Assembly (NCBI GenBank): GCA_947364045.1
Contig: CANARN010000003.1
Coordinates: 2,883-66,882, forward strand
From: an uncultured Clostridia bacterium
GTDB taxonomy: Bacteria; Bacillota; Clostridia; Oscillospirales; Acutalibacteraceae
Length of the DNA: 64,000 bases
Reading direction: 5' to 3'
Part shown: piece after piece, positions 1,993 to 55,458 of the stretch
Layout: every line of letters begins with the position of its first letter
Position numbering within the stretch: the first letter of the stretch is position 1
Made by a program: the position numbers and the translations under genes
The notes under the pieces: generated by a model
Seen by the model: only the letters and a program-made list of their open reading frames with translations
Database searches by the model: none
Told to the model about the DNA's origin: nothing

Positions 1993-2481
1993 ATGGACAA
2001 CAAAAACGAAAAGGAAAAAGAGCTTTGTGATATGCTCCATTTCCTGAATATCTGCGAAAGACGCATAGTTGACCGTTTGCTTGAGGAGAAAGGCATTTAC
2101 TTCGGTCAGCCGCCGATTTTATGCTATTTAAGCCATAACCCGAATGCCACTCAAAAAGAGATTGCGGATTCTCTGAATATTTCTCCTGCTTCTGTGGCAG
2201 TGTCCGTTAAAAGATTGGAAAAATCGGGACTTATTTCACGTGAAACAGATAAGGCTGACGCCCGTCGCAACAATCTTTCTTTAACGGAAAAGGGCGCGGA
2301 GCTGGATTCTTTTGCGCGGCAAAGCTTTTCTTCGGTTGACAGCGCCAAAATTTCAGGTCTTTCCGACGATGAAATTTCTTTTATGCTGTCTGTAATAAAA
2401 AAGATGACAGACAATCTCACAGAGCATTTCCCCGAAAAAAACAAACATTCATTTAAGCAAAAGGAGGAAAATGATGTTTAA
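1993..2481 (+). CDS. MarR-family transcriptional regulator
   Basis: 162 aa with a winged-HTH signature (QKEIADSLNISPASVAVSVKRLEKSGLISRETDKADARRNNLSLTEKG). Overlaps the start of the ABC gene. Confidence 0.85.
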   Translation: MDNKNEKEKELCDMLHFLNICERRIVDRLLEEKGIYFGQPPILCYLSHNPNATQKEIADSLNISPASVAVSVKRLEKSGLISRETDKADARRNNLSLTEKGAELDSFARQSFSSVDSAKISGLSDDEISFMLSVIKKMTDNLTEHFPEKNKHSFKQKEENDV

Positions 2482-38559: not shown

Positions 38560-38635
38560 GCTACTGTGGCTCAGCAGGTAGAGCAGCTCACTCGTAATGA
38601 GCAGGTCGTCCGTTCGAATCGGATCAGTAGCTCCA
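38560..38635 (+). tRNA. tRNA-Thr (anticodon CGT)
   Basis: 76-nt cloverleaf folded by hand: acceptor GCTACTG/CAGTAGC, D-arm GCTC-AGCAGGTA-GAGC, anticodon arm GCTCA-CTCGTAA-TGAGC, T-arm GTCCG-TTCGAAT-CGGAT, encoded CCA. Confidence 0.93.
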
Positions 38636-38637
38636 AA

Positions 38638-38671
38638 AAATCCCTATCCCGTTTTCTTGGAATAGGGATTT
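38638..38671 (+). terminator. Hairpin after tRNA-Thr
   Basis: AAATCCCTAT ... ATAGGGATTT 10-bp stem. The T-tract is short. Confidence 0.5.
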
Positions 38672-38761
38672 ATAATGTTGTTCATCTTTTTTATTTTCAA
38701 CAAATTAATTTTTCTGTTTGTTTTTTCTGTTTCAATAAACTAAAATACAGCCTGTATAATG

Positions 38762-39901
38762 TTAAGGTTTGCTATCCTCAAAAACATCAGAGATTTCAGT
38801 CGAAACAACAATAATTTGTGTTGCAGACTCCGTTGTGCTGTCAGTTACCGTGGAAGCTGTACTCTCCGTTGTACTTGCCGTATTGCTTTCAGGTGTACTT
38901 ACAGTTGGTTTTTGGGTTGTGCTTTCTGTCGGTTTTGCTGTTGACGGGTCAGTAGACGGAACATAGCTTTCAAGAACAATTGCCTGTCTGCCCAATAAAA
39001 CCCATTTATCGTTAAAGGCAGAGTATGTATACTTTACCTTTCCGTAATAAGGATCCGTAATATAAACATAACTTCCGTCATAACCGGAGAGAACCATAAC
39101 GTGCGTTCCTCTTGGATACTCAAAATACTTGTCGCTGCCGTCAGGTTGTTTAATATACCAGCTGTTGACATATTTGGGAGTTTTCATATTATCCGTTGCC
39201 CAAACTATAACAGGCTTATTACTGTCTAACTGTGAAAGCAGGTCCTTAAAACTGCATCCTGTTATATTTTTGGCTATATGCCGAGAACCCTTGCGTCCGA
39301 TTACGCTGTTCAGCGCTCTTGTGATAACGGGCGAAAACGCGCCGTATCCGGGTCGGTCGTCTGTATGTGTTTTTGTTGGGTCACCAACGAATTTTTCATA
39401 TATGCTCGGTCCGTAAACCTTACCGTTTTCTTTATATAAATCATCTCGCGGGATTGCAGCTATCATCTCGTCAAGTGTTACATTATAGCCGTGATATTTT
39501 AACAGCATAGTGGCGGACGCACCCTCACAGCCTGTCGGATATTTGGGATTCTGCTTAACAATCGGAACATCAAGTATAACCTTCTTACTCTTAGATGCAG
39601 GCTTTTTCGGAGGCGGAGCAGGATTTTTCTTTGGCTTATATACCTTAGTTACAGGCGCCGCCGGCGGTTTAGTTACCTTTTCTGTTGTAGATTCTTCGGT
39701 TGTGCTTTCAGACGAACTTTCGGTAACTGATTCAGTAATAGAATCCGTAACAGTTTGTGAAAGCTTTTCGGGGGACGTGGGAACTTTGCCGCCGAATGTG
39801 CCGTGCTTATACAGCACGCAAACAGCTACAACCGCTATCATCAGCACTCCGCCTATGACACTGCCTATCACCGCTTTTTGCTTTTTACTTAATTTTTTCA
39901 C
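38762..39901 (-). CDS. Membrane-anchored C39-like (papain-fold) cysteine peptidase with Ser/Thr-rich linkers
   Basis: Peptidase_C39_2-type core (LDVPIVKQNPKYPTGCEGASATMLLKYHGYNV ... GTHVMVLSGYDG). N-terminal KK-rich segment + TM. S/T/E/P-rich regions flank the core. There is no ATG near the N-terminus; GTG at 39901 is preferred (GAAGGAG upstream), and the track ORF extends to 39973. Confidence 0.7.
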   Translation of the reverse strand: MKKLSKKQKAVIGSVIGGVLMIAVVAVCVLYKHGTFGGKVPTSPEKLSQTVTDSITESVTESSSESTTEESTTEKVTKPPAAPVTKVYKPKKNPAPPPKKPASKSKKVILDVPIVKQNPKYPTGCEGASATMLLKYHGYNVTLDEMIAAIPRDDLYKENGKVYGPSIYEKFVGDPTKTHTDDRPGYGAFSPVITRALNSVIGRKGSRHIAKNITGCSFKDLLSQLDSNKPVIVWATDNMKTPKYVNSWYIKQPDGSDKYFEYPRGTHVMVLSGYDGSYVYITDPYYGKVKYTYSAFNDKWVLLGRQAIVLESYVPSTDPSTAKPTESTTQKPTVSTPESNTASTTESTASTVTDSTTESATQIIVVSTEISDVFEDSKP

Positions 39902-40073
39902 TTCTAATTTTATTGCTCCTTCTCTCACATTCCTTATGTTGCATATGAATCTTACTGTACGTCGGTACAACAATACGGCGAAAGGGTATCCGAAAATCTT
40001 CCTCCGCCGTACTGCTTATTTGAATATAATTAATAAGCTCTCAATATGCACCGATAATCTTATTAGTTTTCAG

Positions 40074-40214
40074 TTAATTTGCTTTTTTGAGCTTGTAAAC
40101 AAAAGCGCCGACCACAGTGAATAGCATCATAGCCCCGAAAACCGAAGCAACTGTATAAACATCTGCATTCTCTGTTGTGTTTGGAATTGCAGTGTATATA
40201 ACGAGTCTGATGTT
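40074..40214 (-). pseudogene. Orphan C-terminal sorting signal (remnant of a surface-protein gene)
   Basis: 46 codons open after an in-frame TAA: ...YTAIPNTTENADVYTVASVFGAMMLFTVVGAFVYKLKKAN-stop. The layout (IPNT motif + TM + basic tail) matches the end of the 35843-37003 protein. No start codon or upstream ORF. Confidence 0.5.
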
Positions 40215-40613
40215 TTATCGTTAATCTATTCCGCAGCAAACACATTTCTGTCTTTAAAATAATTTATACTTCTGCATCTCTTACAATGCTCTATTTTAAA
40301 ATTTTACCAAACGAAAATATAAATTTCTATATTCTGTCAGCATACAGTACGAAATAATTTCTGCTTATTCAAACGGATTTGAGAGTTTTTCATATTATTA
40401 TATATTGATGCTTGATGATACCAGCGGACTTTCGAATTTTATTGTTGCTTTTCAAGATTTATATCATAAATAATGCGATATAATTTAAAATAAAATATAT
40501 AAAAAAATTGTATGAAAACAGTATCTGCCGTAATGTAGCAATAAGAAATAATATAATTAAACACTGAGGACAAACGCCGAAATTAATAAAAACCGCCAGT
40601 TGAATGAATTTGT

Positions 40614-40650
40614 CAAAAAAATCACTGCAAAGTTGTATCTCCACAGTGAT
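40614..40650 (-). terminator. Rho-independent terminator ending the cohesin/dockerin transcription unit
   Basis: In minus sense: ATCACTG-16 nt-CAGTGAT followed by T7. Confidence 0.6.
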
Positions 40651-40900
40651 CAAAGATTAAAGTATACATTCCAAGCATACTTTATAATCTAACACAATCA
40701 TACGGTATTACGACATCAATCTCAAGACGTGTTAATCCATATAACTATGCATTAGCAGAAAAAATTCTTTTCTATGCATAAAACAGAATGTATTTTCAGA
40801 GTCAAACTCTCCCGCTATGAGAAAGCAAGCCTCCTCATAGTTAAAAACCTCGTTTCTGCAATAGCTCCAAATAAAACTAATTCCGCTTTTTATTATAAAA

Positions 40901-41029
40901 TTACTGCTGCCAATTTGCATCATTAGCAAAAGTTAAATCCGGAGTTTCTATTCCGCCGCTTAAAGTAATAATGTTTTCGATTTCAAAACAAATAACAGTG
41001 AAATCCGGCTTTTCATAACTGTTTTTCAT
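40901..41029 (-). CDS. 42-aa peptide with a double-glycine leader-like N-terminus
   Basis: AAAGGAG lies 8 nt upstream of the ATG. Sequence: MKNSYEKPDFTVICFEIENIITLSGG-IETPDLTFANDANWQQ. Hydrophobic residues fall at -4, -7, -12 and -15 relative to GG. Overlaps the 3' end of the upstream cohesin gene by 17 nt. Confidence 0.55.
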   Translation of the reverse strand: MKNSYEKPDFTVICFEIENIITLSGGIETPDLTFANDANWQQ

Positions 41030-42170
41030 TTTTTCCACTCCTTTGATTAAATTTAGTTTTATACTTATTTTTTTTGCAATAAGCAAATATGCTTATTATC
41101 CCCAGTATAATAGCAATCAAAACAATATAAAAAATATTTTTTCCAATATTATTTTTGTTTTCAATTGCATTTCCTGATTCAGAAATATGTGTGTCCTGTG
41201 CATTATATATTTTTCCTATAATGCCCAATGCCGTTTCTGTATCTAAATCCGTCGAAAGACTTGGTATTTCATTGTCATATTGTTTAAGATTTTTTTCAAC
41301 CTTTTCAATAAACGCTGATTTATCTTTATTTTGAAGTTTGTCTACCGACTGAGCATTACAGTCTTTAAGGGCATTCTCAATAGAAGCTTGTATTTTGTAG
41401 GAATCCACATTATTGCTAACCTCTTTAATAAACTCTCCTTCATATGCGCTGTTGTACATACTTATAATTGTTTCAAATGATGTGACATTATGTGCATCTG
41501 TGCCCGTAATCGTTTCAAGGTTTTTGTTAAAGTTTTCAACAAATTCATCTTTGCTTATTACTTTACTCAAACTATCAACTTTGTTTTGATTAAGAGTTAT
41601 TTTTATAGCTTCCAGTACCTGAGAATTGTCTATTGACAAATTCTTGTTTATTGTACTGTCATTTTGAGTATTACTTTCTTCTATTGATGGCTCAATATAA
41701 TATGAACTGATTACCATGTTATTACATTCAATATATACATCCTCGTATTTTTCATCAAATGTATCACGTTGGCTAAATGACAGTTTAATTGTAACGTCCT
41801 CTTTAATTTCTGTTTTCAACTGTGCCGAAACAAGAAACAATGTTCCGTCTCTTTCAACTTCATTTGTGTTGTTCCAAAGCACGTCAAACTTTCCGTCATT
41901 TATCCCGAAATTAGTACTAAAATTACCGACAGATGTAAAATCACCTCTTGATACAGATCTGATATCTATTTTGTCTGTCGGATATTCAACCGTTATTCTA
42001 AACCCCATTAAACCGCTGTTGTTTTTTATCTTTATGGGAATAAGAGTCAACTGTTCCTTCGTTAAATATGTCGTATCTGCAGAAACAGTTACAACGTCAA
42101 CAGCAAACGAAATAGTATTTATTTGAAGAAACAGTATTAACGACAAAAGGATTATGAGACTTTTTTTCAT
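41013..42170 (-). CDS. Membrane-anchored single-cohesin protein (anchoring scaffoldin candidate)
   Basis: 385 aa. Signal peptide, cohesin-like module (~aa 25-160: LIPIKIKNNSGLMGFRITVEYPTDKI ... SFSQRDTFDEKYEDV), helical linker, C-terminal TM (IFYIVLIAIILGIISIFAY) plus a basic tail. Confidence 0.8.
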   Translation of the reverse strand: MKKSLIILLSLILFLQINTISFAVDVVTVSADTTYLTKEQLTLIPIKIKNNSGLMGFRITVEYPTDKIDIRSVSRGDFTSVGNFSTNFGINDGKFDVLWNNTNEVERDGTLFLVSAQLKTEIKEDVTIKLSFSQRDTFDEKYEDVYIECNNMVISSYYIEPSIEESNTQNDSTINKNLSIDNSQVLEAIKITLNQNKVDSLSKVISKDEFVENFNKNLETITGTDAHNVTSFETIISMYNSAYEGEFIKEVSNNVDSYKIQASIENALKDCNAQSVDKLQNKDKSAFIEKVEKNLKQYDNEIPSLSTDLDTETALGIIGKIYNAQDTHISESGNAIENKNNIGKNIFYIVLIAIILGIISIFAYCKKNKYKTKFNQRSGKNEKQL

Positions 42171-42226
42171 AAAAACACCTCTGAAATGTCAGCCGAACTT
42201 AAAGCACGGCTGACATTTGCTAATTA

Positions 42227-45200
42227 TTAAAACGTCTCTTTGCCTACAAGATACCGTGCAACCATTGCTGCGTCCTTATTATCAACATAGCCGTCACCGT
42301 TAACATCAACGGCAAGATTTTGACATTCGTGCACTTCTACTTTTCCTACAAGCTTTTTGTTCATCATTGCAACATCACGGTTATTAATAACACCGTCTCC
42401 CGTCATGTCGCCGGTTACTACAATTGTTTTCATGTCAACAGCATTTTCGCCGTTAAACAGTTTTATCTGTGTTCCGGTTCCGATATAATCAGTTGCTCCC
42501 AGTTCTGTACCCGCTATATTAAAATAGTGTAAATTATCGTTAGCAAATTCTTTCGACGCTTTTTCAACAGAAGTTTTAATAGTAATTCTTCTTAAATAGC
42601 CGAGAGAGTCATAATTCAAGGTCGAATCTGATTTAAGAATTATAAAGTTTGATTTATCAGGTGATACAGTAACATTGCATGATGCTGTTTCTTTTGTGCG
42701 AACAACCTGTACGGTAATAGTTGCTGTACCGGCAGACAATGCTGTAATTTTACCGTTATCATCAACGCTGACAATACTTGGTTCACTTGATGTCCATTCA
42801 ATCTTTTCACCAACCAAATTGCTTGGCGTAACAGTCGGAACAAGAATTACTGTATTTCCCTGATACATATCAACATTAGTTTTGTCCAAAGAAATTCTTG
42901 CGTACTCAGATTCTTTGAAATATTTACCTGTGATTACAGTATCTTCGGTAATGCAATCAAAATCTTTATCCCAACCGCCGAATACATATCCCGGAACAAT
43001 ATCCGTCTCAGGCGCTTTTGCCGCCTGCATATACTCAACAGACTGAGCATCAAGTTCTGTACCGTCCTGCATTTGAAAAATTACAGTATATTCTTTAGGA
43101 GAATATTTAGTAAATAATGTTAAACTTTCTGTTACAGGTGTTGAAAGATCAAACTTGTTTGTAAGTTCTTCATCTGTATATAAACCTACAAAATTATATC
43201 CCTCAATATTATCAAGTTGAGTCGTATCAATTGTTTTGCCCTCTTCAACTAATAAAACATCCCCATAGATATTAATATAAACTATATGATAATTCTTATT
43301 GGAATATCTGTAAACATCATCACTCGTATATTCACGCTTTTCATTTGATGTTGGAGCATCGGTAGTCCAATCAGTCCACTTATAATACTCCGCTACCTGA
43401 TAACGCGAACGATACTGCGTTTTCAAGCCATTTACTCTTGATTGATTAAACCAACGCTGATTATTATGGTTGTAATAGCTTATATTATCATCTGTAAATC
43501 CTGCAATGCTTAATCTGTTTTCAAGTGTAACAGTTTCGTACTCACAACTATATCCGTCAACGGCTGTTGGTGAATATTGAACATCACCATTGCTGTCAGT
43601 ATATTTATAATGAGAATACTGATACCATTTAACAGATGTATCATCGGTTTCCTGAGTGTCAACCTCAAAACCGATTAAGCTGTTATCAACAACAATTTCT
43701 TCATCCTGCCAATTTGTGTACTCTGTATAAGATGTTTTATTAAGAGTCCAACCACTATCCCGAAGATTATTTATTTCATCTGAATTAGAAGTCTTTTGAA
43801 CATCTTTATACTTATATCCTGCTTCAGACTCAAGAACATAATCGTCTAAATTATTCTTTACATCATCAGGAATTTCAGAATAGAGCATCCATTCACTTGG
43901 CTTGTCGCCCGTGTTTATGCAATAGTATTCAGTAGATACCTCGCTGTCATTCTTACCTAAACTTGTTGCATAGTAGGTTACCGAGCAAGATTTATCTATT
44001 TCAATAGGTCCTGTATAAATCTGTTCCGTTATTTCATCGCCGTTTAAGAAATAGTAAATAACAGCGTTTGGATCGTTTGATGTAAGCATAAGCTGAATTT
44101 TATCATTATATTCGCCGGTAGTATAATTTGCAACCGGAGTGTCTGCTGTCTCATCAAAATAATATGAAGGATAAATAATTGCATCGTGCTTAACATACTG
44201 GTAATCCTCAGGATTAAACCAGTCGGCAAAATTCACGCCTTCCTCCTCCGGATCATCAGGTACAACTGCTGTTTCTCCATGCTTAACTGTTTGAGTATCA
44301 ATTACATTGTTATTCCAATCATAGAATTTAACGGTATATTCATTTGCCTCATACTGAGCAGTTACCACCATATCCTGAGTAACAATAGTATTTTCAGAAT
44401 CCCAACCCTTAAAGGCATATCCTTCAACAGTTTCAGCCTCGGGTGCAACCAATACATCACCATGATTGAATTTCTTTATTTCTATCTGCTGATTTTCCCA
44501 ATCAACAAAAACAACTGTATACTGTTTCTTTTCAAAATCAGCATAAAACTCAGTATCTTCTTTTATGTTTGATACGCTCTTATCCCAACCCAAGAAATTA
44601 TATCCATCCTTAGTCGGATTTTCAGGAAGGACCGCGCTTTCTCCCTCTGTTACGGCTTGCGTACTGATAACGGTTCCGTCCCAATCATAAAATTTTACCG
44701 TATAAGTCGGTTTCGGCGCCTCAATAGTATCAATAACAGTTCTGTCTGTTGTACCCTCTATACCGATAGCAACTGTAAAATCGCCCGTTTTTACAGTAGG
44801 TTCTTCACGAAGTTTAAAGGTAAAAGAATATGAGCCGTCATTGGCAACAGTTGACTGACCGATATATTGGTTCGTATAGTCAGATGCGCCCGTGTAACCG
44901 TAAACATAAAGCGTAATCTGCTTTCCTGCAAAAGATGTATCAAGTTTACCGTTAACAGTTCTTAGCTTACCCGAATTATCCTCCGGCTGAACAGCATTAC
45001 TCTTATATCTGTAAACAGTTCTTGTATTTACATCACGATTACCGTTTGCTGTAACCTCTGTGTCACTCCATTCAGACCATGTTTTCCAGCGATAGAAATT
45101 GTAAATATAGTTTATATCTCTATATCTGTACTGTGTTCCATATATTGGAGAATTGTAATCAGGTTCATACCACTGATAATCTCCGCGTCTATACCAAACA

Positions 45201-47404
45201 TTCTTACAGCTACCATCCTTATAGTAGCCATACATTGGTGTGTTGCCCACACTGGAAGTACCAACACGTCCTAAATCGTAATCAAGATTTGCGTAATGAA
45301 CAGTATTGCTATTCCATGTTGGTGTAACATTACCATTACTTAAATGGCAATGATAAAAATGATACACCAATTTTTGATTATAATTACCAGTAAGTGCTGT
45401 TTGCGTCTCTACTTCTCTTCTTTGGCTTTCATTTTCATATCCGCCAATAAAATTCCAGCCCCAGCCTGACCATCCGCCTTCCTGTTCAGTTCTGTTTCCT
45501 GTATAAGTCCAACCCTCTTTTGTTTTGGTATTACCAGTTGAAAATTCTTTATCTCTATAACTATACTGTGTTACTTCCTGAATATCCAGCGTTCCGTCAC
45601 TATTATCCGGTTTGACAGTAGATTCTGCATACATCAAGCCTTCTTTGATAGTAGTATTCACACTTGGAGAAATAGGGACACCTGATGAATAATCAGAAAC
45701 CATAAATACTTCAATAGAAGAAGCTACTTTGTTACAAGGAATGAAAACTTCTACGCCGCTTTTGGTTTTTCCGGCGGGAATACTGAATGCTGTTGACTCA
45801 GTCATATCGACAAGCTTTCCTTCTGCCGTTTTTAACGCAACAACTGCACGACCCGTTGTGGGTTTTGAATCGTTATTTTCAATATCAAATGTTACATAAT
45901 ATCCGTCATACTGACGTGTAGCAGATTTAATTGTACATATTGTCGGCAAATCATAATTGTACCAAGAATATATACCGTCAATATTTATAGTTTTATCTGT
46001 TCTATCGGTGTAAACATTGATATAATCCGTACTGTTCCAGCCTAAAAATTTGTATTTACTGTTTTCGTTTGTATTTGTCGGCGGTGTAGCGTCACTGCCG
46101 TAATTTACCTTTTGACTGTCAATTAATGTTCCTTCTCTATCAAAGAAATTAACTGTATATGTATTAATTTTATAAGTAGCTTTGATTGTTTTATCCGCTG
46201 TTACATTATAAAACGAATCGGTCCATCCCTGAAAAGTATACCCCTTCCTTTGCGGTGCAGATGGCGCTGTTGCACTTGCACCGTAATCAATTGTCTGAGT
46301 GCCTAACAGAGTATCATCCCAGTCAACAAAATTAACCGTTACAGGATTATGTGCTGTACAGTTTCTCGGAGAAGACCAGTTGCTTGAGCCTGAAACATTT
46401 GACGCCTTAACATAAAAGTCATATTTTTCTGCATTTGAAAGAACAAAAGAGTATGAGGTTGTATTGCCAACGTCGATATCCTGATTTAAGCTTGAACTTC
46501 TAATACCTACTGTATAATCGGTTGCACCGCTGACGGCATTCCAGCTAAATGTTATAGTCTTACCTTTTGCAATATTCTCCGAGCTTATATTGCTGATAGA
46601 CGGCGTTGCGGGAACAGGTATGTTTACCTTGGTAAAGTAATCAAGACATACCCAGCCGACTTTACCGGCAAAGGTTATCTTTCCCCAGTTACCGTTTGTT
46701 TCATAAACATAAACTTCTGCATTTTTAGGAACTGTACAACCAATTTTATTTCCAACTTTAACACCGGCAGAACTTCTCATATTTACGCCTGAGTTACAAG
46801 TGTTTTTATATGTACCATTACTATTTTTAGCATTAGCATTATAATAAGTATTATTTACAGGTGATTCTTTATTTGAAAAATCATCTTCAATTACACCTTT
46901 ATTAGAAAAATCTGGTCTTATTACTCCATAAAATCCGGTAGAATATCTCCAATTTCCACGATGAACTTTATAACCATAAGATTTACCTTGATCAACTAGA
47001 GTCATACTTGTTGAGTCTGCAGAAATCACAAGACCCACATGCCCATATTTAGAGCCTAATGAAGTAGAAGTAGCAGTCCACACAGCTATATCTCCAGGCT
47101 GTGCCGAAAAACCTTTATAATACGCTATTCTTGTCCATCCATTCGGTAAACGATTATATGCATAATCTTTTCCGTGACCTCCTGGACAAGTAACTCCTAA
47201 ATATTCATAATAAGCTTTAATCAAGGCTGGACATTGACCATCACCTACTTTTGAACCTACTTTAGAAGAAATCCAATTAACAGCTTCTTGCTGTGAATGT
47301 GACGTAGCCGCACTTGCAGTAATAGTACCAACAGGCAGGATTGACATTACCATTAACAGTGACAAAAATGTCGAAAGAATTTTTACGCTTATTTTCTTTT
47401 TCAT
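42227..47404 (-). CDS. Giant secreted CHAP amidase/peptidase - SH3b - FN3 - InlB-B-type repeats - Big_2 - dockerin protein
   Basis: ~1725 aa from the second ATG (AAAGGAG 7 nt upstream). Signal peptide. CHAP with GQC...GHVGLV. SH3b. FN3. At least 7 YTV.F.D..G......V..G....P..P...GY.F.GW repeats. Two W-rich modules (..QYRYR..Y.W..WSEWS...VYRY). Big_2. C-terminal dockerin. Confidence 0.85.
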   Translation of the reverse strand: MKKKISVKILSTFLSLLMVMSILPVGTITASAATSHSQQEAVNWISSKVGSKVGDGQCPALIKAYYEYLGVTCPGGHGKDYAYNRLPNGWTRIAYYKGFSAQPGDIAVWTATSTSLGSKYGHVGLVISADSTSMTLVDQGKSYGYKVHRGNWRYSTGFYGVIRPDFSNKGVIEDDFSNKESPVNNTYYNANAKNSNGTYKNTCNSGVNMRSSAGVKVGNKIGCTVPKNAEVYVYETNGNWGKITFAGKVGWVCLDYFTKVNIPVPATPSISNISSENIAKGKTITFSWNAVSGATDYTVGIRSSSLNQDIDVGNTTSYSFVLSNAEKYDFYVKASNVSGSSNWSSPRNCTAHNPVTVNFVDWDDTLLGTQTIDYGASATAPSAPQRKGYTFQGWTDSFYNVTADKTIKATYKINTYTVNFFDREGTLIDSQKVNYGSDATPPTNTNENSKYKFLGWNSTDYINVYTDRTDKTINIDGIYSWYNYDLPTICTIKSATRQYDGYYVTFDIENNDSKPTTGRAVVALKTAEGKLVDMTESTAFSIPAGKTKSGVEVFIPCNKVASSIEVFMVSDYSSGVPISPSVNTTIKEGLMYAESTVKPDNSDGTLDIQEVTQYSYRDKEFSTGNTKTKEGWTYTGNRTEQEGGWSGWGWNFIGGYENESQRREVETQTALTGNYNQKLVYHFYHCHLSNGNVTPTWNSNTVHYANLDYDLGRVGTSSVGNTPMYGYYKDGSCKNVWYRRGDYQWYEPDYNSPIYGTQYRYRDINYIYNFYRWKTWSEWSDTEVTANGNRDVNTRTVYRYKSNAVQPEDNSGKLRTVNGKLDTSFAGKQITLYVYGYTGASDYTNQYIGQSTVANDGSYSFTFKLREEPTVKTGDFTVAIGIEGTTDRTVIDTIEAPKPTYTVKFYDWDGTVISTQAVTEGESAVLPENPTKDGYNFLGWDKSVSNIKEDTEFYADFEKKQYTVVFVDWENQQIEIKKFNHGDVLVAPEAETVEGYAFKGWDSENTIVTQDMVVTAQYEANEYTVKFYDWNNNVIDTQTVKHGETAVVPDDPEEEGVNFADWFNPEDYQYVKHDAIIYPSYYFDETADTPVANYTTGEYNDKIQLMLTSNDPNAVIYYFLNGDEITEQIYTGPIEIDKSCSVTYYATSLGKNDSEVSTEYYCINTGDKPSEWMLYSEIPDDVKNNLDDYVLESEAGYKYKDVQKTSNSDEINNLRDSGWTLNKTSYTEYTNWQDEEIVVDNSLIGFEVDTQETDDTSVKWYQYSHYKYTDSNGDVQYSPTAVDGYSCEYETVTLENRLSIAGFTDDNISYYNHNNQRWFNQSRVNGLKTQYRSRYQVAEYYKWTDWTTDAPTSNEKREYTSDDVYRYSNKNYHIVYINIYGDVLLVEEGKTIDTTQLDNIEGYNFVGLYTDEELTNKFDLSTPVTESLTLFTKYSPKEYTVIFQMQDGTELDAQSVEYMQAAKAPETDIVPGYVFGGWDKDFDCITEDTVITGKYFKESEYARISLDKTNVDMYQGNTVILVPTVTPSNLVGEKIEWTSSEPSIVSVDDNGKITALSAGTATITVQVVRTKETASCNVTVSPDKSNFIILKSDSTLNYDSLGYLRRITIKTSVEKASKEFANDNLHYFNIAGTELGATDYIGTGTQIKLFNGENAVDMKTIVVTGDMTGDGVINNRDVAMMNKKLVGKVEVHECQNLAVDVNGDGYVDNKDAAMVARYLVGKETF
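42230..42460 (-). other. Dockerin module of the giant protein (approximate bounds)
   Basis: Two Ca-binding F-hand repeats: GDMTGDGVINNRDVAMMNKKLVG and VDVNGDGYVDNKDAAMVARYLVG. Confidence 0.8.
46913..47290 (-). other. CHAP catalytic domain of the giant protein (approximate bounds)
   Basis: Cys in DGQCPALIKAYYEY and His in KYGHVGLVIS, directly after the signal peptide. Confidence 0.75.
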
Positions 47405-47469
47405 TGTTTTACTCCTTTTCATAAATTTATTTTTAATATAATTAAATTATAAATTTCATTCCCCTTTCT

Positions 47470-49692
47470 CTATAATACCTTGCCGTATGCATTGGCAGAT
47501 TGTCCGTAACGCATCATTGCCTGCAGCATATTATCAAGGGCTGTTCCGGCATATGCACTGCCTTGAACATCCTTTGCATAGGATTCAACGCTGTACCTCA
47601 TAGTGTTACTGCACGGTTCACCGTTATCATACACCGTTACAAGCATTTCTTCGCCCATTTGATGCGCTAAGATTTTATCAAAATACACATAATAAGTTCC
47701 GTCGCCGTTCGCAACAAAATCATTCTTCGTATATGTATAAGTTCTTCCGCAAAAAACCACTTTAACTGATACATTTTCAATATTCGCAATTGCAAATTTA
47801 CTTCTCACTTGAACTGAATCTATTAAATACAGCCCTACTGCCTTCCATTCCGCAGTAGGATTATCAATTGTTTTGTATTTTATATCTGCGATACTTACAA
47901 GTTCGGGTGTTTTTGCCGTGCCCCACGCTTTTTGTTCAGCTGTTAAGCCTGCGTCAACAAGTGCGTCTGTTTTATAGTTTGTGTATATCTGCGCTTTTGC
48001 TCCGTAATCCAACAAATCAACAAGAAGTGTTCTGAATTTTTGACCGGCTTCGGTATTAATCGTCGCATACGCATCTAACATTGCATACGCGTACATTTTT
48101 ATGCTCATTTTTCTTGCGCTGCTCGAATACATCTTGCCGTTTGCTTTATATGTGGCTCGAAGCGTAGCTGAAACCTCATTATTCATCATTTTCGGGGATA
48201 TTCCCTCAAATGAAAACACATAATAATCGCCCTGTTCTGTATATTTTGTAACAGTAGTTGTGTTAAAGCCCTCACAGTCAAATACCATATACGGATTTTC
48301 AAAGTCGGCAACTGCAGTTTTTAACACCTTATAATTCATTTGTATATTATTTTGAAGCGAAAGCGACACCGCTTTAATCATAAAATCACTTAAATTCGGC
48401 TCTAACGGATTTAATAAAAAACTTATATCTTTGCAATTAAAAATAACATCTTCATATTTCTCATTGAAAGTATCTCTTTGACTGTAATTTACAATAACAG
48501 AAGTATCAGTCTTTTTCTCTGTCAACACCTTAAATGTTAAAGTACACAAAATACCGTTTGCATATATTTCATCTGTGTTGTTCCACAAAACGATAAATTT
48601 ACCTTCATTAACGCCGATAGAGTCGCTGAATCTAACATTGTTTGTCAAAAACGCTTCACCGCATGAGGCGGATATTGGCTGAAGCAAAGCAGGGTCATAA
48701 GTAAACTCAAGACTATACCCCATAATTCCGTGATTATTTTCAATATAAATCGGAACAGTTATTTCGTTATTATATGACGCGCTGACATCATTCACATAAA
48801 GCTCTGCAATTTCACTGGTTTCAGACGGAATTATCTTTAAACTGCATCCTTTACAAACAATTCCTTGATTTTCCGAAGAAACAGCAAAATTATAGCTGCC
48901 GGACACTGCTTTATCTTTTGCTTTAAAGGTCAATGTTACAAAAACAGTATTATTGACAGACATTGTAATTCCGGAAATGTCCAATACCAGTTTTCCGTTT
49001 GTCTCGGTTTTCTTAACATCAAGCCCGTTTGCTGCATCAATTACTTTAAATTCAAAATTATCCGCATTGTAATTAACTGTTGTTTGAAGTTCTGTAACTC
49101 CACTGATTTCTGAAATATTCAGTTTCAGTCTAACATCGTTTCCTGCTATTGTGTCCTCTGCACTTGCATTTATTTTTGCATATTTTGAGTACTCACTGTT
49201 TGCAATAAAAAAGTCAATCGGCTTACATTCTAAACGAACATCGTTATAACTGTTATCAAATGTATCTTCCTGTGAATAAGAAATATCAATACGAGCGTTA
49301 CCTACAGCAGACGCACTGACTTCAAAAACAAGATAAATCATAACCCCGTTATAATTTTTTCCTTCCCCATCTGAGCTTGCCCAGTAAACATTAAATTTTC
49401 CGGGAACCATATCACCTTTAATATTATCTTGCAAGCCGCCGACAAATACATCTCCGTTTTCAATCGAAACGGGGGTTAAGATATCTTTATCGTATTCAAA
49501 AACCAATTTCCATCCGAGAATATCCTTGTTGTTTTTTATAGAAATAGGTACCCTGATTTGTCCCCCTGCATTAGCGTTTTTAAAATCGCTGTAAACCGTA
49601 ACAGCGTCTTGGGCATAAACAGAAACATTCAATCCCAAAACCATACTAAATAACATTATTGCAGATAAAATTAAACTTATTGACTTTTTCAC
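47470..49692 (-). CDS. Secreted protein with three cohesin-like modules and an uncharacterised ~310-aa C-terminal domain
   Basis: 740 aa. Signal peptide (..VYA/QD). Modules at ~aa 29-163, 172-288 and 296-427; the first and third carry the same ..SYSQ(E/R)DTF(D/N)..Y(N/E)DV signature as the 385-aa protein. No TM, dockerin or sorting signal seen. Confidence 0.8.
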   Translation of the reverse strand: MKKSISLILSAIMLFSMVLGLNVSVYAQDAVTVYSDFKNANAGGQIRVPISIKNNKDILGWKLVFEYDKDILTPVSIENGDVFVGGLQDNIKGDMVPGKFNVYWASSDGEGKNYNGVMIYLVFEVSASAVGNARIDISYSQEDTFDNSYNDVRLECKPIDFFIANSEYSKYAKINASAEDTIAGNDVRLKLNISEISGVTELQTTVNYNADNFEFKVIDAANGLDVKKTETNGKLVLDISGITMSVNNTVFVTLTFKAKDKAVSGSYNFAVSSENQGIVCKGCSLKIIPSETSEIAELYVNDVSASYNNEITVPIYIENNHGIMGYSLEFTYDPALLQPISASCGEAFLTNNVRFSDSIGVNEGKFIVLWNNTDEIYANGILCTLTFKVLTEKKTDTSVIVNYSQRDTFNEKYEDVIFNCKDISFLLNPLEPNLSDFMIKAVSLSLQNNIQMNYKVLKTAVADFENPYMVFDCEGFNTTTVTKYTEQGDYYVFSFEGISPKMMNNEVSATLRATYKANGKMYSSSARKMSIKMYAYAMLDAYATINTEAGQKFRTLLVDLLDYGAKAQIYTNYKTDALVDAGLTAEQKAWGTAKTPELVSIADIKYKTIDNPTAEWKAVGLYLIDSVQVRSKFAIANIENVSVKVVFCGRTYTYTKNDFVANGDGTYYVYFDKILAHQMGEEMLVTVYDNGEPCSNTMRYSVESYAKDVQGSAYAGTALDNMLQAMMRYGQSANAYGKVL

Positions 49693-49822
49693 TTTTTCAC
49701 CCTCTAAAATAACACTTTTTTACTGTATTAAGCAGCACACAAATCCATTATTTGTAATATTTTATCACAATAAAAATAAAAATCTATATGCTAACAGAGT
49801 ATAGGTTTTTGGCAAATTCCTA

Positions 49823-51373
49823 TTGCAAAAAATGTCAAAAAGTGGCATTATATATGTATCTTTTAAATATAGGGGTTGTAAAAACTTGAAAAACTGCAAA
49901 TTTTGTAATGCTTCATTGCCTGACGAAGCCTCATTTTGCTTACACTGTTCTTCGCCGTTAAACGGCTGTGAAAAATCAGAGCCTAAAGCTCCAAAGAGGT
50001 TTATTCGCAAAAGGTATGTTGAGGTTTTTATTGTACTGCTGTTTATTTTTTCTTTATCGATATTTTCGGCATACAGGATTAAAAAACTGCCGACTAAAGC
50101 TCAAACAAATGCACCTGAAACAGTTTTAATTCCTGTAACCGAAGAAAACGGCGAAACTGTGACGAATCCGCAAGGCGATACAGTTTTTGAAGCCGTTACG
50201 GTTGAAACGACTACAAAGAAGCCCACCATTATCGGAGTAATCGGAAGTTTATTAGGCGTAGACAAGGATAAAGAAAACGATAAAGATAATAACAATGTCA
50301 GCAGTTCAAATACAACCGATTATTCAGGTTCGGATATTGGCAGCAAGCCTCCCTCAACCGAGACAGATATAAGTGATTTTTCAGAAATTTCTTCTACGGA
50401 CAGCGGCAGCGTTAACGAACCCACACAGAACAGTCCCACTACAGAAACAGAACCCCCGACAAAGAAAGAAGAATCTATTAAAGAAAATCCTGCCGAAGTT
50501 TTTGAATTTGCCCCTTATTCTTCAAACAAGTCATATTTATCCATTGCTAAATATAAAGGCAACGCCGAACATGTAGTAATACCCGCATCATATAACGGTC
50601 AGTACATTGTTGAAATACAAAGAAATGCATTCAAAGATAATGATAAAGTCAAAATTATAAGTATTGATGAAAACAGACCGTATTTTGATCTCAAATCCGA
50701 ATGCTTTTATAACTGCCAGAATCTTCATACAATAAATTTGCCCAATGTACTTTTAGAGATATCTAGTAATTTTGCCAAATACTGTTATGCAATGAAGACA
50801 ATTGTTATAAACAACAATCGATATAAATTTGAAAACGGAGGATTATATTATTACAACAGCAGAATATGGTATTTGTTATATTGCTGTCCTGCTTCATTTC
50901 CTGATACATTTACAATTCCCTTGTGGTCTGCAGGCATCGTAGATGCGTGTAATCTTTCTGAACTGTCACAGTTAAGAGTTATTAATTGTCATCAATATGT
51001 TAGTAGTTTTCCCCATCAAACAAGTTTGCCAAAAAATCTCGAAGCCATCTATGTTGATGATAAAAATAAAAACGGTTATGACGTCAACGGAATAGCATTT
51101 GGACTTCGAAATGGTAAATACTATTGTTCATATCCGCCCTCAAACCCCACTAAAGAGTTTACTCTTCCAAATAATTCTTACTTAATCACTAGTTGGCTAA
51201 AAAATCCGTATCTTGAAACTTTAAGAATTGAAGAAACGGCCGAAATACTAAGTTCCTATTCTATTGCAGATAAATTTACATTCACAAATTTGAAAACCAT
51301 CTACATAAAAAGCGGTCATAAAGATGAAGCTGATATAAAAAGAAAATTTAAAGGAACCGTATATACCTATTAA
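49823..51373 (+). CDS. Zinc-ribbon - TM - Ser/Thr/Pro/Glu-rich linker - BspA-type leucine-rich-repeat surface protein
   Basis: CKFCNASLPDEASFCLHCSSPL, TM VEVFIVLLFIFSLSIFSAY, low-complexity linker, then LRR-like repeats (VVIPASYNG..IVEIQRNAF.., LHTINLPN..LEISSNFA..). The true start is uncertain (TTG at 49886 is possible). Confidence 0.65.
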   Translation: MQKMSKSGIIYVSFKYRGCKNLKNCKFCNASLPDEASFCLHCSSPLNGCEKSEPKAPKRFIRKRYVEVFIVLLFIFSLSIFSAYRIKKLPTKAQTNAPETVLIPVTEENGETVTNPQGDTVFEAVTVETTTKKPTIIGVIGSLLGVDKDKENDKDNNNVSSSNTTDYSGSDIGSKPPSTETDISDFSEISSTDSGSVNEPTQNSPTTETEPPTKKEESIKENPAEVFEFAPYSSNKSYLSIAKYKGNAEHVVIPASYNGQYIVEIQRNAFKDNDKVKIISIDENRPYFDLKSECFYNCQNLHTINLPNVLLEISSNFAKYCYAMKTIVINNNRYKFENGGLYYYNSRIWYLLYCCPASFPDTFTIPLWSAGIVDACNLSELSQLRVINCHQYVSSFPHQTSLPKNLEAIYVDDKNKNGYDVNGIAFGLRNGKYYCSYPPSNPTKEFTLPNNSYLITSWLKNPYLETLRIEETAEILSSYSIADKFTFTNLKTIYIKSGHKDEADIKRKFKGTVYTY

Positions 51374-51446
51374 TTTGATGATATAAGACTTAAATTTATG
51401 GGTGAAAAATCAGTATAAAAAATAATGAAAGTATCAGGTGTGTATT

Positions 51447-51866
51447 ATGACTACTGACGAGCTTATGAACACTTTATCAGAGGAAAACTGTTCTTTGGAC
51501 AACTTTTTATCCGATAATGACGATTCTTTCGTAAATGAAGATATTAAAGAATTCTGGGACGGTATTATCAATTCAAAAGGCTACTCAAAATCAAATATAA
51601 TTAACAAATCGGATTTCAGCTACTGCTATTTTTACGATATTATTAACGGGCGTAAAATGCCTACGAAAGATAAGGTAGTAAGACTGTCGCTCGCTATGAG
51701 AATGAGCCTTGAGGAATGTCAGAAAGCCCTAAAAATTTCAGGAAGATGTGCTTTGTACCCAAGAATTCGCAGAGACAGCATTTTAATTTACGCTCTTGAA
51801 AATCAGCTGACAATTTTCAAGACTGACGAGCTTTTAAAAAAATACGGAGAGGAATGTTTGAAATAG
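51447..51866 (+). CDS. XRE-like HTH protein paired with the kinase
   Basis: 139 aa from ATG 51447 (AGGTG 7 nt upstream). HTH segment SKSNIINKSDFSYCYFYDIINGRKMPTKDKVVRLSLAMRMSLEECQKAL. The 3' end overlaps the kinase start by 13 nt. Confidence 0.65.
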   Translation: MTTDELMNTLSEENCSLDNFLSDNDDSFVNEDIKEFWDGIINSKGYSKSNIINKSDFSYCYFYDIINGRKMPTKDKVVRLSLAMRMSLEECQKALKISGRCALYPRIRRDSILIYALENQLTIFKTDELLKKYGEECLK

Positions 51867-52612
51867 ACGGGAGCTGTAACGAGTTATTAAACTACATTGA
51901 AAATTCACTTGAAAAAAACTATGTAAAAAAATCCACATATAAAAACAATTTAAACTCTAAGGTTATTCTCTATCAAAACAAAGATAACGGTAAATATATT
52001 ATTAAAAGATTTACAAAAAATCTTAACGATGACGTTTTCAGGCTGTTAAAAAATAATACTCATACAAACATAGTTCAGATTTATGAGGTTTGCGCCGATG
52101 ACGGAGATGCAATCATTGTTTTGGAAGAATATGTTGAGGGAAAAACCTTGTCAGAAATTCTTTCGGAAGGAAAATTCGACAAAAAAACAGCCTGCCGCAT
52201 TGCCGTACAAATTTGCGACGCTCTGATTTGCCTTCATTCAATAGGCATTATTCACCGTGATATTAAACCTGAAAACATAATTATTAAAGATGACGGCACA
52301 GCTGTTCTTATTGACTTTTCAATTGCGCGGCTTATGAACAATCACGATAAAGACACGCAGGCACTGGGAACACCCGGATATGCCGCACCCGAACAATTTG
52401 GTATTTCTCAGTCGGGCAGTACAACTGACATTTACAGCTTGGGAATTCTTATGAATATTATGCTGACAGGCGTTCACCCGTCTGTTGATTTGCCGAAAGG
52501 ACTGTTACGGCATATTATAAAAAAATGCACCAATGTCCAGATTTCAAAACGGTATTCAAATGCAAGGAAGCTTAAAAGAGCAATCAAATTAACATTTAAT
52601 TTTTTAAAATAA
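51854..52612 (+). CDS. Minimal Hanks-type Ser/Thr protein kinase (catalytic domain only)
   Basis: 252 aa. YIIKRF (VAIK-like Lys), HRDIKPENIII, DFSIAR, GTPGYAAPE. No TM, PASTA or other sensor domain. Confidence 0.85.
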   Translation: MFEIDGSCNELLNYIENSLEKNYVKKSTYKNNLNSKVILYQNKDNGKYIIKRFTKNLNDDVFRLLKNNTHTNIVQIYEVCADDGDAIIVLEEYVEGKTLSEILSEGKFDKKTACRIAVQICDALICLHSIGIIHRDIKPENIIIKDDGTAVLIDFSIARLMNNHDKDTQALGTPGYAAPEQFGISQSGSTTDIYSLGILMNIMLTGVHPSVDLPKGLLRHIIKKCTNVQISKRYSNARKLKRAIKLTFNFLK

Positions 52613-53442: not shown

Positions 53443-55458
53443 ATGGGAAATGAATTAAAATTTGACAAAAGGAAAAAGGCACTGCCGATAGCATTTGCGG
53501 TTTTGGGCGTGATTTTGTTTGCGGTACAGCTGGTAACAAGGCAAAATCTTGTTGCGGTTGTCAATCTTGTTTATATGATAATAACCTCAGTGCTCATATT
53601 CCTCGGCATTCTGATTATGAAAAAGGTATACGCATTTATGCTGGCGGGCTACGGCTCGTCTCTTGCCGGGCTTATACTTTTTCACATTATTTTCGGCGCA
53701 GACGCAGGCTTCGGCGCATTTACAACGGGTAAGGCGGGCTGGTCCTCGGCTGAGCATTCGCTCTGGGCGGGGGAAGGCTCATTTTTAACAAGGCTTGCGG
53801 GCAACATTCTTTTGTCTTTGCCCTTAATTTTGCCCCTTGCGCTCCTTTATTTTTCGGGTAAGCGCAATTTTAAGTCGGGCTTTACCAAAAAGCTTATATG
53901 CTCATTTTTAAGCTTTGCCTTAATCGGCTCTACCGTTTATTACGTTCTTTTTATGAATATGCGCACAAAGCCCGTTACCCAAAGATTGTGGGACGGGCAT
54001 GACAATTATCTCAATTCTGTTGAAAAGAACGCTAAGGGCAAGCCCAATGTACTGGTTATTCTTATGGACGATTTGGGATACGGCGACGTGGGTCTTAACG
54101 GTGCAATTTACGACACGCCCAACATTGACAGCATAGGCGAAAACGGTCTTAACTTTGAAAATTACTATTCAAGCTATTCGGTTTGCTCCCCTGCACGCTT
54201 TGCGGCACTGACAGGCAGATACCCCTACCGAGGCTATGCCGACAATGTAATTTACCCCACAGCAAACTGCACGACTCCCTTTGCGCAGACAAGAATATTC
54301 AACAGCATTGAAATGCTCAACAATACCGACGGTATGCTGGGCGATGAAATCACAATTGCGGAAACCCTTAAGGCGGCAGGCTACAATACGGGACTTTTCG
54401 GCAAATGGCATTTGGGCGATTACGGCGAATATCTGCCCACAAATCAGGGCTTTGATTATTTCTACGGAGGATACTCCGTAAACGATATGAAACCCTTCTA
54501 CCATGTCCGTGAAGAGAACGGCGAGTACACCATTGCCCGCGGTACGGACGAATTGAAGGACCAGTCCAATGCAACAAGGTGGATTCACGACGAAATATCA
54601 TCTTGGATAACCGATAAGGTAACAAATTCAGACCAGCCGTTTTTTGCATATTACACTACTCCGTGGCCGCACGCTCCGATTTTTGCAGGCGACGATTTTG
54701 ACGGAATAAGCGGAATGGGCACATATGTTGACTGTGTAACCGAATTTGATACATATCTCGGAAAGCTGTTTGCAACTCTTGAGGAGCTGGGCGTACTTGA
54801 AGACACAATTATTGTATTTACCAGCGACAACGGCCCTGCTCTTGAAGGCTCCACGGGCGAGCTCAGAGGAGGTAAATACCTTGCTTATGACGGCGGGCAA
54901 AAGGTGCCCTTTATGATCAGGTGGGACAATAACGGCGGAATTTTTGAGGCGGGCGAAACACGTGAGCAGACCTCAACTCTTGTTGACCTGTACCCCACGC
55001 TTATTGAGCTTTGCGGAATTATCTGCAAGGATAATCCCACAGCATTGCCCAAGGACAGAGTAATAGACGGTGTTTCAATGGTTCCGCTTTTAAAGAATGA
55101 CGCTGTAATCCACACTCCCGAGCATCCCATTCTTCATATGAAGCGCCGTAAGGTTAAAGCAATTTCCTATACCGTGCCTACAAGCAGTATAAAATCACGG
55201 GCGGAATACAGCTCATATAACTATGACGTTCTAAACGATAACGAGTACATAACCTTTAAATATTTTAAAAATATTCAGAATGACAACAGCGCATTCTTTG
55301 ACAAGTACAGAAAGAATTGGCTGCACATTTTAACCGATGATGCAGGCGAAAACTATAACAGAACGCCTGTTTACCCCACGGTTTCAGATGAAATGAGTAA
55401 ACAGCTTACCGAAATTCAAAAGGATTTTGAAAACAATCCAAGAGGAATGATTAAATAA
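53443..55458 (+). CDS. Membrane-anchored Cys-type (formylglycine) sulfatase
   Basis: 671 aa. Five N-terminal TM helices (~aa 10-175), then a sulfatase domain with MDDLGYGD and the CSPARFAALTGRYP FGly motif. Confidence 0.85.
   Translation: MGNELKFDKRKKALPIAFAVLGVILFAVQLVTRQNLVAVVNLVYMIITSVLIFLGILIMKKVYAFMLAGYGSSLAGLILFHIIFGADAGFGAFTTGKAGWSSAEHSLWAGEGSFLTRLAGNILLSLPLILPLALLYFSGKRNFKSGFTKKLICSFLSFALIGSTVYYVLFMNMRTKPVTQRLWDGHDNYLNSVEKNAKGKPNVLVILMDDLGYGDVGLNGAIYDTPNIDSIGENGLNFENYYSSYSVCSPARFAALTGRYPYRGYADNVIYPTANCTTPFAQTRIFNSIEMLNNTDGMLGDEITIAETLKAAGYNTGLFGKWHLGDYGEYLPTNQGFDYFYGGYSVNDMKPFYHVREENGEYTIARGTDELKDQSNATRWIHDEISSWITDKVTNSDQPFFAYYTTPWPHAPIFAGDDFDGISGMGTYVDCVTEFDTYLGKLFATLEELGVLEDTIIVFTSDNGPALEGSTGELRGGKYLAYDGGQKVPFMIRWDNNGGIFEAGETREQTSTLVDLYPTLIELCGIICKDNPTALPKDRVIDGVSMVPLLKNDAVIHTPEHPILHMKRRKVKAISYTVPTSSIKSRAEYSSYNYDVLNDNEYITFKYFKNIQNDNSAFFDKYRKNWLHILTDDAGENYNRTPVYPTVSDEMSKQLTEIQKDFENNPRGMIK

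Follow-up and report, generated by a model that had tools for sequence, protein, structure and literature searches.

A swappable peptidoglycan-hydrolase head on a predicted cohesin-dockerin display cassette of uncultured gut Clostridia

We analysed a 64 kb stretch of the genome of an uncultured Clostridia bacterium of the family Acutalibacteraceae (assembly GCA_947364045.1, contig CANARN010000003.1, positions 2,883 to 66,882 of the forward strand), hereafter called the window, and in particular a cassette of four open reading frames (ORFs) at 40901-49692, all in the same orientation on the minus strand. These encode a three-cohesin protein of 740 amino acids (aa), a giant dockerin protein of 1725 aa with an N-terminal CHAP enzyme domain, a single-cohesin protein of 385 aa and a peptide of 42 aa. 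The main finding is that the enzymatic head of the giant protein is exchanged by recombination between strains that are otherwise nearly identical. A previous sequence-only reading of this stretch had described the four-ORF unit, and its ORFs and domains were confirmed by Pfam and alignments. It had proposed a dedicated, carbohydrate-independent cohesin-dockerin module, and every comparative test we ran speaks for that proposal; the head swapping, which we regard as the most telling feature, was absent from it. We hold with good confidence that the locus is devoted to displaying, through cohesin and dockerin, a peptidoglycan hydrolase whose head can be swapped. To the fuller explanation, a surface-tethered, polymorphic peptidoglycan-hydrolase "lance" on a dedicated mobile module that acts on neighbouring bacteria, we give an even chance. 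It should be noted that the scans of the window cover 64 kb of one genome, that the loci of relatives were examined as fetched stretches, and that the sequences used for comparison are mostly metagenome assemblies.

The exchange is seen when the window is aligned with a contig from another sample (L001). Over 13.5 kb (window 38565-52096) the two are 98.8-99.5% identical except at 46820-47328, where the giant protein of L001 carries a Peptidase_M23 head (HYGID...HLHFE) in place of the CHAP domain. In the nucleotide alignment the two sequences match fully as far as 47329, where the signal-peptide core ends; beyond this point the similarity breaks off, to reappear at about 46800 and become full once more from about 46790, where SH3b starts. 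The head cassette at 46790-47328 (minus strand) comprises the signal-peptide cleavage region, the CHAP domain (about 46988-47242) and a linker. A second pair of loci, L083 and L084, provided an independent replicate: across 25 kb their identity is 99.1-99.3%, apart from a stretch of about 525 nt where one codes for an ELLD/Amidase_5-type head and its counterpart for CHAP. The swapping pattern is therefore confirmed. For the window species as for the second pair, the two head alleles were recovered in assemblies independent of each other.

When the members of the giant-protein family were compared, their heads fell into at least 13 classes without detectable similarity between classes. The types recognised by Pfam are CHAP subtypes, M23, NlpC/P60, ELLD/Amidase_5, Amidase_6, Peptidase_C39_2-like and Phage_lysozyme2+M23, while several classes gave no Pfam match, some of these showing paired Cys...His motifs by eye. 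Unrelated heads were repeatedly found on near-identical bodies, with an overall body identity of 97-99.7%: the window and P0001 (98.8%), P0012, P0015 and P0016 (98-99%, three different heads), P0022 and P0024 (99.7%), and P0057 and P0069 (99%). The converse case, near-identical heads on bodies just 53-66% identical, was also detected. The enzyme head is thus a swappable recombination cassette. Some members were considered for their unusual layout (P0071, P0100, P0105, P0106 and P0108), two of which have double heads, Phage_lysozyme2+M23 in P0071 and CHAP+NlpC/P60 in P0100. There are also relatives of about 1500-2500 aa that carry both cohesin and dockerin on the enzyme chain.

An immunity gene is the normal companion of both polymorphic toxins and bacteriolysins of the diffusible kind. 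We searched for a gene co-varying with the head in both strain pairs, over 13.5 kb for the window and L001 and 25 kb for L083 and L084, and found none; only the head, about 525-540 nt, differs. As no other gene differs in either pair, a linked, head-specific immunity gene does not exist. The 42-aa peptide and the 385-aa anchor could be rejected as head-specific immunity proteins, both being identical in the CHAP and M23 strains. Genes for a FemABX-type wall modifier, which might confer immunity, were absent from the Pfam scans and annotations of neighbour genes in four contexts. Searching the window with all head classes (tblastn) returned the resident head only and no orphan heads, and a neighbouring C39-like gene was discarded as a candidate orphan head since it has no similarity to any head class. 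A prophage or conjugation origin of the cassette was likewise rejected; no phage genes were seen in any context, and relaxase genes lie nearby in L078-L080 only.

A missing immunity gene is what would be expected of an enzyme that works on the producer's own wall. The complex might be a tethered autolysin, serving daughter-cell separation, wall turnover or the opening of the wall for large surface structures, with the membrane tether limiting the damage. Division hydrolases controlled from the membrane are known (PcsB, CwlO/RipC, EnvC), and CHAP, NlpC/P60 and M23 are head types of these as well. However, the frequent replacement of the catalytic domain by an unrelated one between 99%-identical strains is not known for housekeeping autolysins, and a stalk of 1450 residues between anchor and head would be unexpected if the enzyme worked on wall close to the membrane. 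The locus does keep a stable chromosomal position within the species, but the cassette is mobile and low in G+C, and some scaffoldins of the family are fused to leucine-rich repeat (LRR) adhesin domains. Taken together we consider a tethered autolysin rather unlikely, though it deserves to be taken seriously.

The heads point to peptidoglycan as the probable substrate. In the family-wide Pfam scan every recognisable head belongs to a peptidoglycan-hydrolase family, and the catalytic motifs are kept in the three heads that were inspected: GQC/YGHV in the window CHAP, HxxxD and HxH in the M23 head of L001, and DCSS..GH in an NlpC-type head. The window CHAP (PF05257) scored 29.8 bits against a curated cut-off of 26 and, aligned along its whole length, shares about 35% identity with lysins of staphylococcal and lactococcal phages. 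Its Cys (GQC) and His (YGHV) align with the Cys/His motifs of the phage lysin in PDB entry 5d74, in agreement with the earlier assignment, which covers these two of its catalytic residues. An SH3b module, a peptidoglycan-binding type of domain, adjoins the head in the window (46619-46819, minus strand; SH3_3 33.2 bits, cut-off 27, when the module was scanned alone) and follows it in about 45 of the 99 family members; in some distant relatives, including one L009 copy, PG_binding_1 takes its place. No carbohydrate-active cargo was found in the window or the fetched loci, the one dockerin protein of the window carrying CHAP and the family heads being peptidoglycan hydrolases.

These observations bear on the possibility that the giant protein is mainly a variable surface fibril, an adhesin or colonisation factor whose tip is exchanged to evade adsorbing phages or the antibodies of the host, the hydrolase activity being secondary or lost. 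A tip domain on a repeat stalk (Flg_new, Big_2, FN3) with a surface anchor is indeed the layout of fibrillar adhesins, and it is the outermost end alone that varies. If the variation were purely antigenic, however, the catalytic motifs would not be preserved as they are in the three inspected heads. The swapped-in heads are moreover always peptidoglycan-hydrolase folds, and peptidoglycan-binding modules adjoin them, hence we find such a fibril very improbable.

The giant protein (minus strand) is ordered as signal peptide, CHAP, SH3b, FN3, Flg_new repeats, two W-rich modules, Big_2 and dockerin. Besides the modules above, Pfam detected seven Flg_new repeats, CHB_HEX_C_1/Fn3_assoc, Big_2 (1.1e-13) and Dockerin_1 (1.4e-10), and fn3 reached 23.9 bits when scanned alone, just under the cut-off. 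The stalk occupies approximately 42914-46618. From the head downwards it consists of the FN3-like module (46340-46618), two Flg_new repeats, an Ig-like module, W-rich module 1 (44969-45643), a small beta module, three Flg_new repeats (about 44150-44713), CHB_HEX_C_1 (about 43931-44119), W-rich module 2 (about 43280-43897) and two further Flg_new repeats. The C-terminal region (42230-42895) holds Big_2 (about 42674-42895), a small pre-dockerin module (about 42425-42652) and the dockerin (about 42248-42412). The latter has two F-hand loops, DMTGDGVINNRD and DVNGDGYVDNKD, and matches solved dockerins, so that its earlier description as a canonical two-F-hand dockerin stands, as do the positions previously given for the W-rich modules.

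W-rich module 1 was modelled by AlphaFold2 (AF2) with very long beta strands (predicted local distance difference test, pLDDT, 83.5), and a fold search gave no match in PDB at E <= 0.001; nor does the module match Pfam in the copy used. Its pattern ("YRYR...W..WS.WS...YRY") recurs widely as an extracellular repeat, and a profile search retrieved 916 representatives at E <= 1e-10. Among 57 sampled carriers outside the giant family, 22 are Ser/Thr kinases with the module in an extracellular position, four also have PASTA, three SLH and three LRR_5; zinc-ribbon or TIR proteins carry it too. By association, this suggests a wall-associated extracellular rod or sensor module.

The candidate partners offered by the same cassette are two cohesin proteins. 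In the 740-aa protein (47470-49692, minus strand), where Pfam detects three cohesins (E 2.4e-30), a signal peptide (about aa 1-27) is followed by cohesin 1 (49198-49611), a divergent cohesin 2 (48823-49197), cohesin 3 (48388-48822) and a C-terminal domain of 305 aa (47473-48387) made up of two beta-sandwich-plus-helices units. The three-cohesin part is retained in 89 homologues with variable C-termini. Although the AF2 model of the 305-aa domain is confident (pLDDT 93.9), fold searches in PDB and BFVD gave generic tandem-Ig matches only (template modelling score about 0.2), none of them informative. It is a mobile module, placed at the extreme C-terminus of every carrier, and also ends LRR_5/BspA and GLUG proteins that have no cohesin. 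We suppose that it may serve in surface attachment or targeting. In other lineages (e.g. L078) some scaffoldins have three cohesins fused to a BspA-type LRR_5 adhesin domain.

The 385-aa protein (41013-42170, minus strand) consists of a signal peptide, a cohesin (41676-42098), a linker of ~180 aa, a putative transmembrane helix (about 41076-41135) and a basic tail. It has no Pfam match above the cut-off (Cohesin 22.2 bits against 24.1 when the module was scanned alone), and over residues 44-165 it shares 39% identity (E 1e-24) with cohesin 3 of the 740-aa protein. The hydrophobic C-terminal helix with the basic tail points to a type-I membrane protein with the cohesin outside. A search for an LPXTG motif found none; the anchor is of the C-terminal helix and basic tail type in 14/14 loci. 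The local cohesins are very divergent, their best match to a solved structure having an E value of 4.7e-5. Cohesin 1, cohesin 3 and the anchor cohesin carry the signature SQxDTF..Y.DV, as the sequence-only reading had it, but the signature is not private to the locus: SQxDTF(N/D)E..(E/N)DV also marks the cohesins of distant cassette loci. A locus-private matching code was ruled out on this account, the motif being family-wide. Exactly one dockerin and four cohesin modules were counted in the window, which agrees with the earlier view of a matched-looking receptor set beside one ligand-bearing enzyme.

A search for homologues of the giant protein gave about 100 clusters (90% identity) of 1570-1860 aa from gut Clostridia, nearly all from metagenome assemblies, which share the whole body and dockerin at 40-90% identity; one cluster alone has 1056 member sequences. 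The family carries no name in any source consulted for these clusters. In a scan of one genome per species, relatives of full or nearly full length, with 28-50% identity, were present in at least 17 metagenome-assembled genomes, which derive from the guts of humans, goats, rabbits and ruminants and are mostly labelled Acutalibacteraceae, and two further relatives were more distant or partial (L021, L069). Cohesin genes flank the giant gene in every related locus with sufficient flank. Directly beside it in 14/14 loci (12 by pattern search, L007 and L014 by eye) lies a gene whose product, 316-406 aa long, has one cohesin and ends in a hydrophobic helix and a basic tail. The second cohesin component is not constant. 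In the window it combines three cohesins with the 305-aa domain and in L007 three cohesins with a dockerin; elsewhere it has cohesins plus FN3, or is a short single-cohesin protein or a giant protein with two or three cohesins. The survey of co-occurrence that had been proposed earlier thus came out in favour of the module, with the anchor gene and other cohesin genes moving together with the giant gene.

The surroundings of the cassette vary. In the window it lies among LRR, helix-turn-helix (HTH) and kinase genes and the C39-like gene, in L078-L080 with relaxase, NikA and resolvase genes, in L081 between sbcCD and a MatE gene, and in L083 between an MFS gene and a DUF3089 gene. That it stays unbroken across such unrelated contexts argues that the giant dockerin gene and the cohesin genes form a dedicated, mobile module. 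The conserved adjacency, the movement as one cassette and the cohesin motif kept across loci further suggest that the local cohesins are working partners of the dockerin protein.

Alternatively, the giant protein might be an ordinary member of a genome-wide cellulosome or amylosome, with its dockerin docking to general scaffoldins encoded elsewhere, the adjacent cohesins serving other dockerins and the adjacency being incidental. Peptidase-type and LRR-type dockerin proteins do bind general scaffoldins in R. bromii and R. flavefaciens (PMC4611034, PMC3573020), and a 64 kb view of the genome leaves room for other dockerins and cohesins. Incidental adjacency is nevertheless hard to reconcile with a giant gene and a membrane-anchored cohesin gene that are neighbours in 14/14 loci, in species whose giant proteins are just 28-50% identical, and that travel together between unrelated contexts. 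As no carbohydrate-active enzyme is linked to the cassette either, we give this explanation very little weight.

Some distant loci have giant dockerin genes in tandem (L015 1616-11988; L009 7193-17292), and the L015 paralogues carry different heads, Amidase_6 and M23. Such tandem enzymes of different bond specificity, along with the one lysozyme+M23 double head and the multivalent cohesin scaffold, would fit a nutrient-scavenging "murosome", in which peptidoglycan hydrolases concentrated on the surface would harvest wall fragments of dead or living bacteria for carbon and nitrogen. The synergy between enzymes that cohesin-dockerin assembly gives is well established for cellulosomes. Most loci, the window included, have a single enzyme though, and the heads are mostly peptidases or amidases with hardly any glycosidases. 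No muropeptide uptake or catabolic genes were linked to the cassette in any of the four contexts, and swapping heads between strains is not obviously needed for harvesting a substrate. It seems to us improbable that scavenging is the main function.

The remaining features of the locus were located as follows. The three-cohesin ORF (740 aa, 47470-49692, minus strand) begins with GTG behind a GAGGGTG ribosome-binding site. For the giant ORF (42227-47404, minus strand) an alternative ATG exists upstream at 47422, and with this first ATG the gene gaps are 47 nt and 56 nt, as had been reported. The start is, however, likely to be the ATG at 47404, because it has an AAAGGAG site and agrees with the start in all homologues; this gives the 1725-aa product and a gap of 65 nt. 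The anchor ORF (385 aa, 41013-42170) overlaps by 17 nt, as previously stated, with the small ORF (42 aa, 40901-41029), which has an AAAGGAG site. Downstream of the unit a terminator-like hairpin followed by a T run is found at 40620-40651 (minus strand), which by consensus match only is in line with the closing terminator predicted earlier. The intergenic region 5' of the three-cohesin gene (49693-49822) contains, next to the GAGGGTG site, divergent promoter-like sites, TTGCCA..TAGCAT with TG and TGTGATAAAAT, both consensus matches only. Over about 40-54 kb the G+C content is 0.31-0.37, compared with 0.42-0.46 in the flanks, and this low stretch spans the cassette together with the LRR, HTH and kinase genes. 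As the core genes carAB, pyrG and dnaX lie in its flanks, the cassette region is a chromosomal island.

The 42-aa peptide is acidic and begins MKNSYEKPDFTVICFEIENIITLSGG. Peptides of this type occur in three cassette lineages at differing positions (window 40901-41029, minus strand; L078 9785-9901; L083 9774-9911) and share the pattern M.K.AY..P....V..F...D/N-I-I-T-T/L-S-G/P-G.... They are identical or nearly so in strains with different heads, and a search for a family match found none.

Beside the cassette, at 49823-52612 on the plus strand, lies a divergent trio encoding a zinc-ribbon/transmembrane/BspA-type LRR_5 protein (516 aa), an HTH-like protein (142 aa) and a Ser/Thr kinase (252 aa), and the same trio adjoins the cassette in the distant locus L007. 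With LRR_5 fused to scaffoldins elsewhere, there may be a regulatory or targeting link. Just 3' of the cassette (38762-39973, minus strand) a 403-aa ORF encodes a membrane-anchored Peptidase_C39_2 protein with Ser/Thr/Pro-rich linkers. Further away, at 53443-56540 (plus strand), a sulfatase gene (671 aa) is followed by one for a radical SAM/SPASM protein (360 aa), the usual coupling of a sulfatase with its anaerobic maturase. In L078 a 1087-aa protein with a Pfam RdRP match (PF05183, the eukaryotic-type RNA-dependent RNA polymerase family) is encoded at 1289-4552 (plus strand), beside the relaxase and NikA genes and upstream of the cassette.

Compared with known systems, the cassette resembles in structure the cellulosomes and amylosomes of Ruminococcus, with which it shares a C-terminal two-F-hand dockerin, cohesin scaffoldins and a single-cohesin anchoring protein. 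It differs in that the cargo is not carbohydrate-active, that enzyme, anchor and scaffold are held in one small mobile cassette, that the predicted anchor is a transmembrane helix and not a sortase LPXTG signal or SLH domains, that the enzyme is a 1725-aa stalk with a polymorphic tip, and that the cohesins are very divergent. The cassette thus has the structural make-up of a cohesin-dockerin assembly and lacks its carbohydrate-active cargo and usual anchoring. The sequence-only reading knew of no characterised system of this composition, and we found none in the literature, but the parts have published precedent. RflaF_05439 of R. flavefaciens has two NlpC/P60 modules with an XDoc and binds ScaE (PMC3573020), other dockerins of this species are found on papain-like or peptidase modules and on LRR proteins (PMC3573020; PMC2930009), and Sca2 of R. 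bromii binds the dockerins of a peptidase and an LRR protein (PMC4611034). A recent preprint (bioRxiv 10.64898/2026.02.05.704116) predicts transmembrane-anchored single cohesins in R. difficilis, R. sp. HUN007, JE7B6, zg921 and zg924, gut or rumen relatives of R. bromii, and its figure legends name Flg, endopeptidase and SH3 domains on scaffoldin-like proteins. In the passages searched, it reads its ruminococcal systems as starch-oriented or fibre-oriented and cellulosome-like; the single cohesin on a C-terminal transmembrane helix is shared with our anchor, while those passages hold no dedicated hydrolase cassette or head polymorphism.

The polymorphic toxins, such as LXG/type VIIb secretion system (T7SSb) toxins and WapA of Gram-positive bacteria as well as contact-dependent inhibition (CDI) and Rhs toxins, also combine a conserved delivery or stalk region with a recombining effector, so that near-identical strains have unrelated effectors, and WapA is attached to the wall. 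Here, in contrast, the variable domain is N-terminal after the signal peptide and not C-terminal, the effectors are extracellular wall hydrolases and not intracellular toxins, and the cassette lacks a cognate immunity gene (in two strain pairs) and orphan cassettes (in the window). It has, in short, the variable effector of a polymorphic toxin and not the immunity gene. Some PT-TG polymorphic toxins have been observed to bear cohesin and dockerin domains (PMC13483458).

Bacteriolysins such as lysostaphin, zoocin A, enterolysin A and LYSO resemble the window enzyme as secreted M23- or CHAP-type hydrolases with an SH3b wall-binding module. They are small and mostly diffusible, and have adjacent wall-modifying immunity genes. 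The enzyme described here, known from sequence alone, is on the contrary a giant stalk with predicted cohesin-dockerin docking and no linked immunity gene. Modular phage lysins and tail lysins draw on the same pool of shuffled modules (CHAP, M23, NlpC/P60, amidases, Phage_lysozyme2), but the cassette is chromosomal with no phage structural genes nearby in any context seen, and the giant protein would be exported by its signal peptide and anchored through its dockerin. Our search of the literature on dockerins together with bacteriolysins, polymorphic toxins, CHAP or interbacterial antagonism found no description of such a cassette or head polymorphism. A wall-bound bacteriolysin, LYSO, has been implicated in contact-dependent antagonism in Lactococcus carnosus (PMC12116727).

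From these results the following picture of the surface-tethered lance can be drawn. All three proteins would be exported by Sec, and the dockerin of the 1725-aa protein would plug into the cohesin of the 385-aa type-I membrane protein, whose ~180-residue linker would span the wall; alternatively or in addition it might dock to the three cohesins of the 740-aa protein. The stalk, with about 1450 residues in about 16 beta modules, may hold the CHAP and SH3b head tens of nanometres from the membrane. The head, exchanged by recombination among CHAP, M23, NlpC/P60, amidase, C39-like and lysozyme types, would then cut the peptidoglycan of neighbouring Gram-positive cells on contact, in antagonism or prey lysis, and a swap would direct it at other wall chemistries. 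What protects the producer would be the geometry of the tether and/or a wall chemistry that the head cannot attack, rather than a linked immunity protein. What makes action on neighbouring cells seem the most likely is that heads are swapped in this pattern, that the cassette is mobile, that the head lies far from the anchor and that some scaffoldins carry LRR adhesin domains.

Several points weigh against this picture. The main difficulty is a head without an immunity gene, as the survival of sister cells then needs another explanation, and the missing gene is equally compatible with an enzyme that cuts the producer's own wall. The pairing of the dockerin is deduced from gene association only, and its partner cohesins could be encoded elsewhere in the genome. 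The variation of the tip could instead be an escape from phages or host immunoglobulin A. Going one step further than the lance itself, we tentatively suggest, and with less assurance, that such contact-dependent "lytic lances" may make up a hitherto unrecognised weapon class of gut Clostridia, the hydrolase tip being retargeted by cassette recombination. No immunity protein would be needed, because the enzyme would be held off the producer's wall and/or could not cut it, and the three-cohesin partner, sometimes with a BspA-type LRR, might grip or cluster lances on prey.

To our knowledge, cohesin-dockerin assembly has so far been studied almost only for plant-fibre and starch enzymes. Here a compact cassette, found widely among the uncultured Clostridia of human and herbivore guts, appears to reserve plug and socket for a cell-wall hydrolase. 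Autolysins, bacteriolysins and polymorphic toxins are not known to show what is seen here, a catalytic tip swapped at the strain level and no immunity gene linked to it. With four cohesins, one dockerin and two natural head alleles (CHAP and M23) in strains that are otherwise 99% identical, the question can be tested directly. If the complex does kill or lyse neighbours, it would represent a Sec-dependent, immunity-free form of contact antagonism among Gram-positive gut commensals, and the family would constitute a natural library of interchangeable lytic domains on one chassis.

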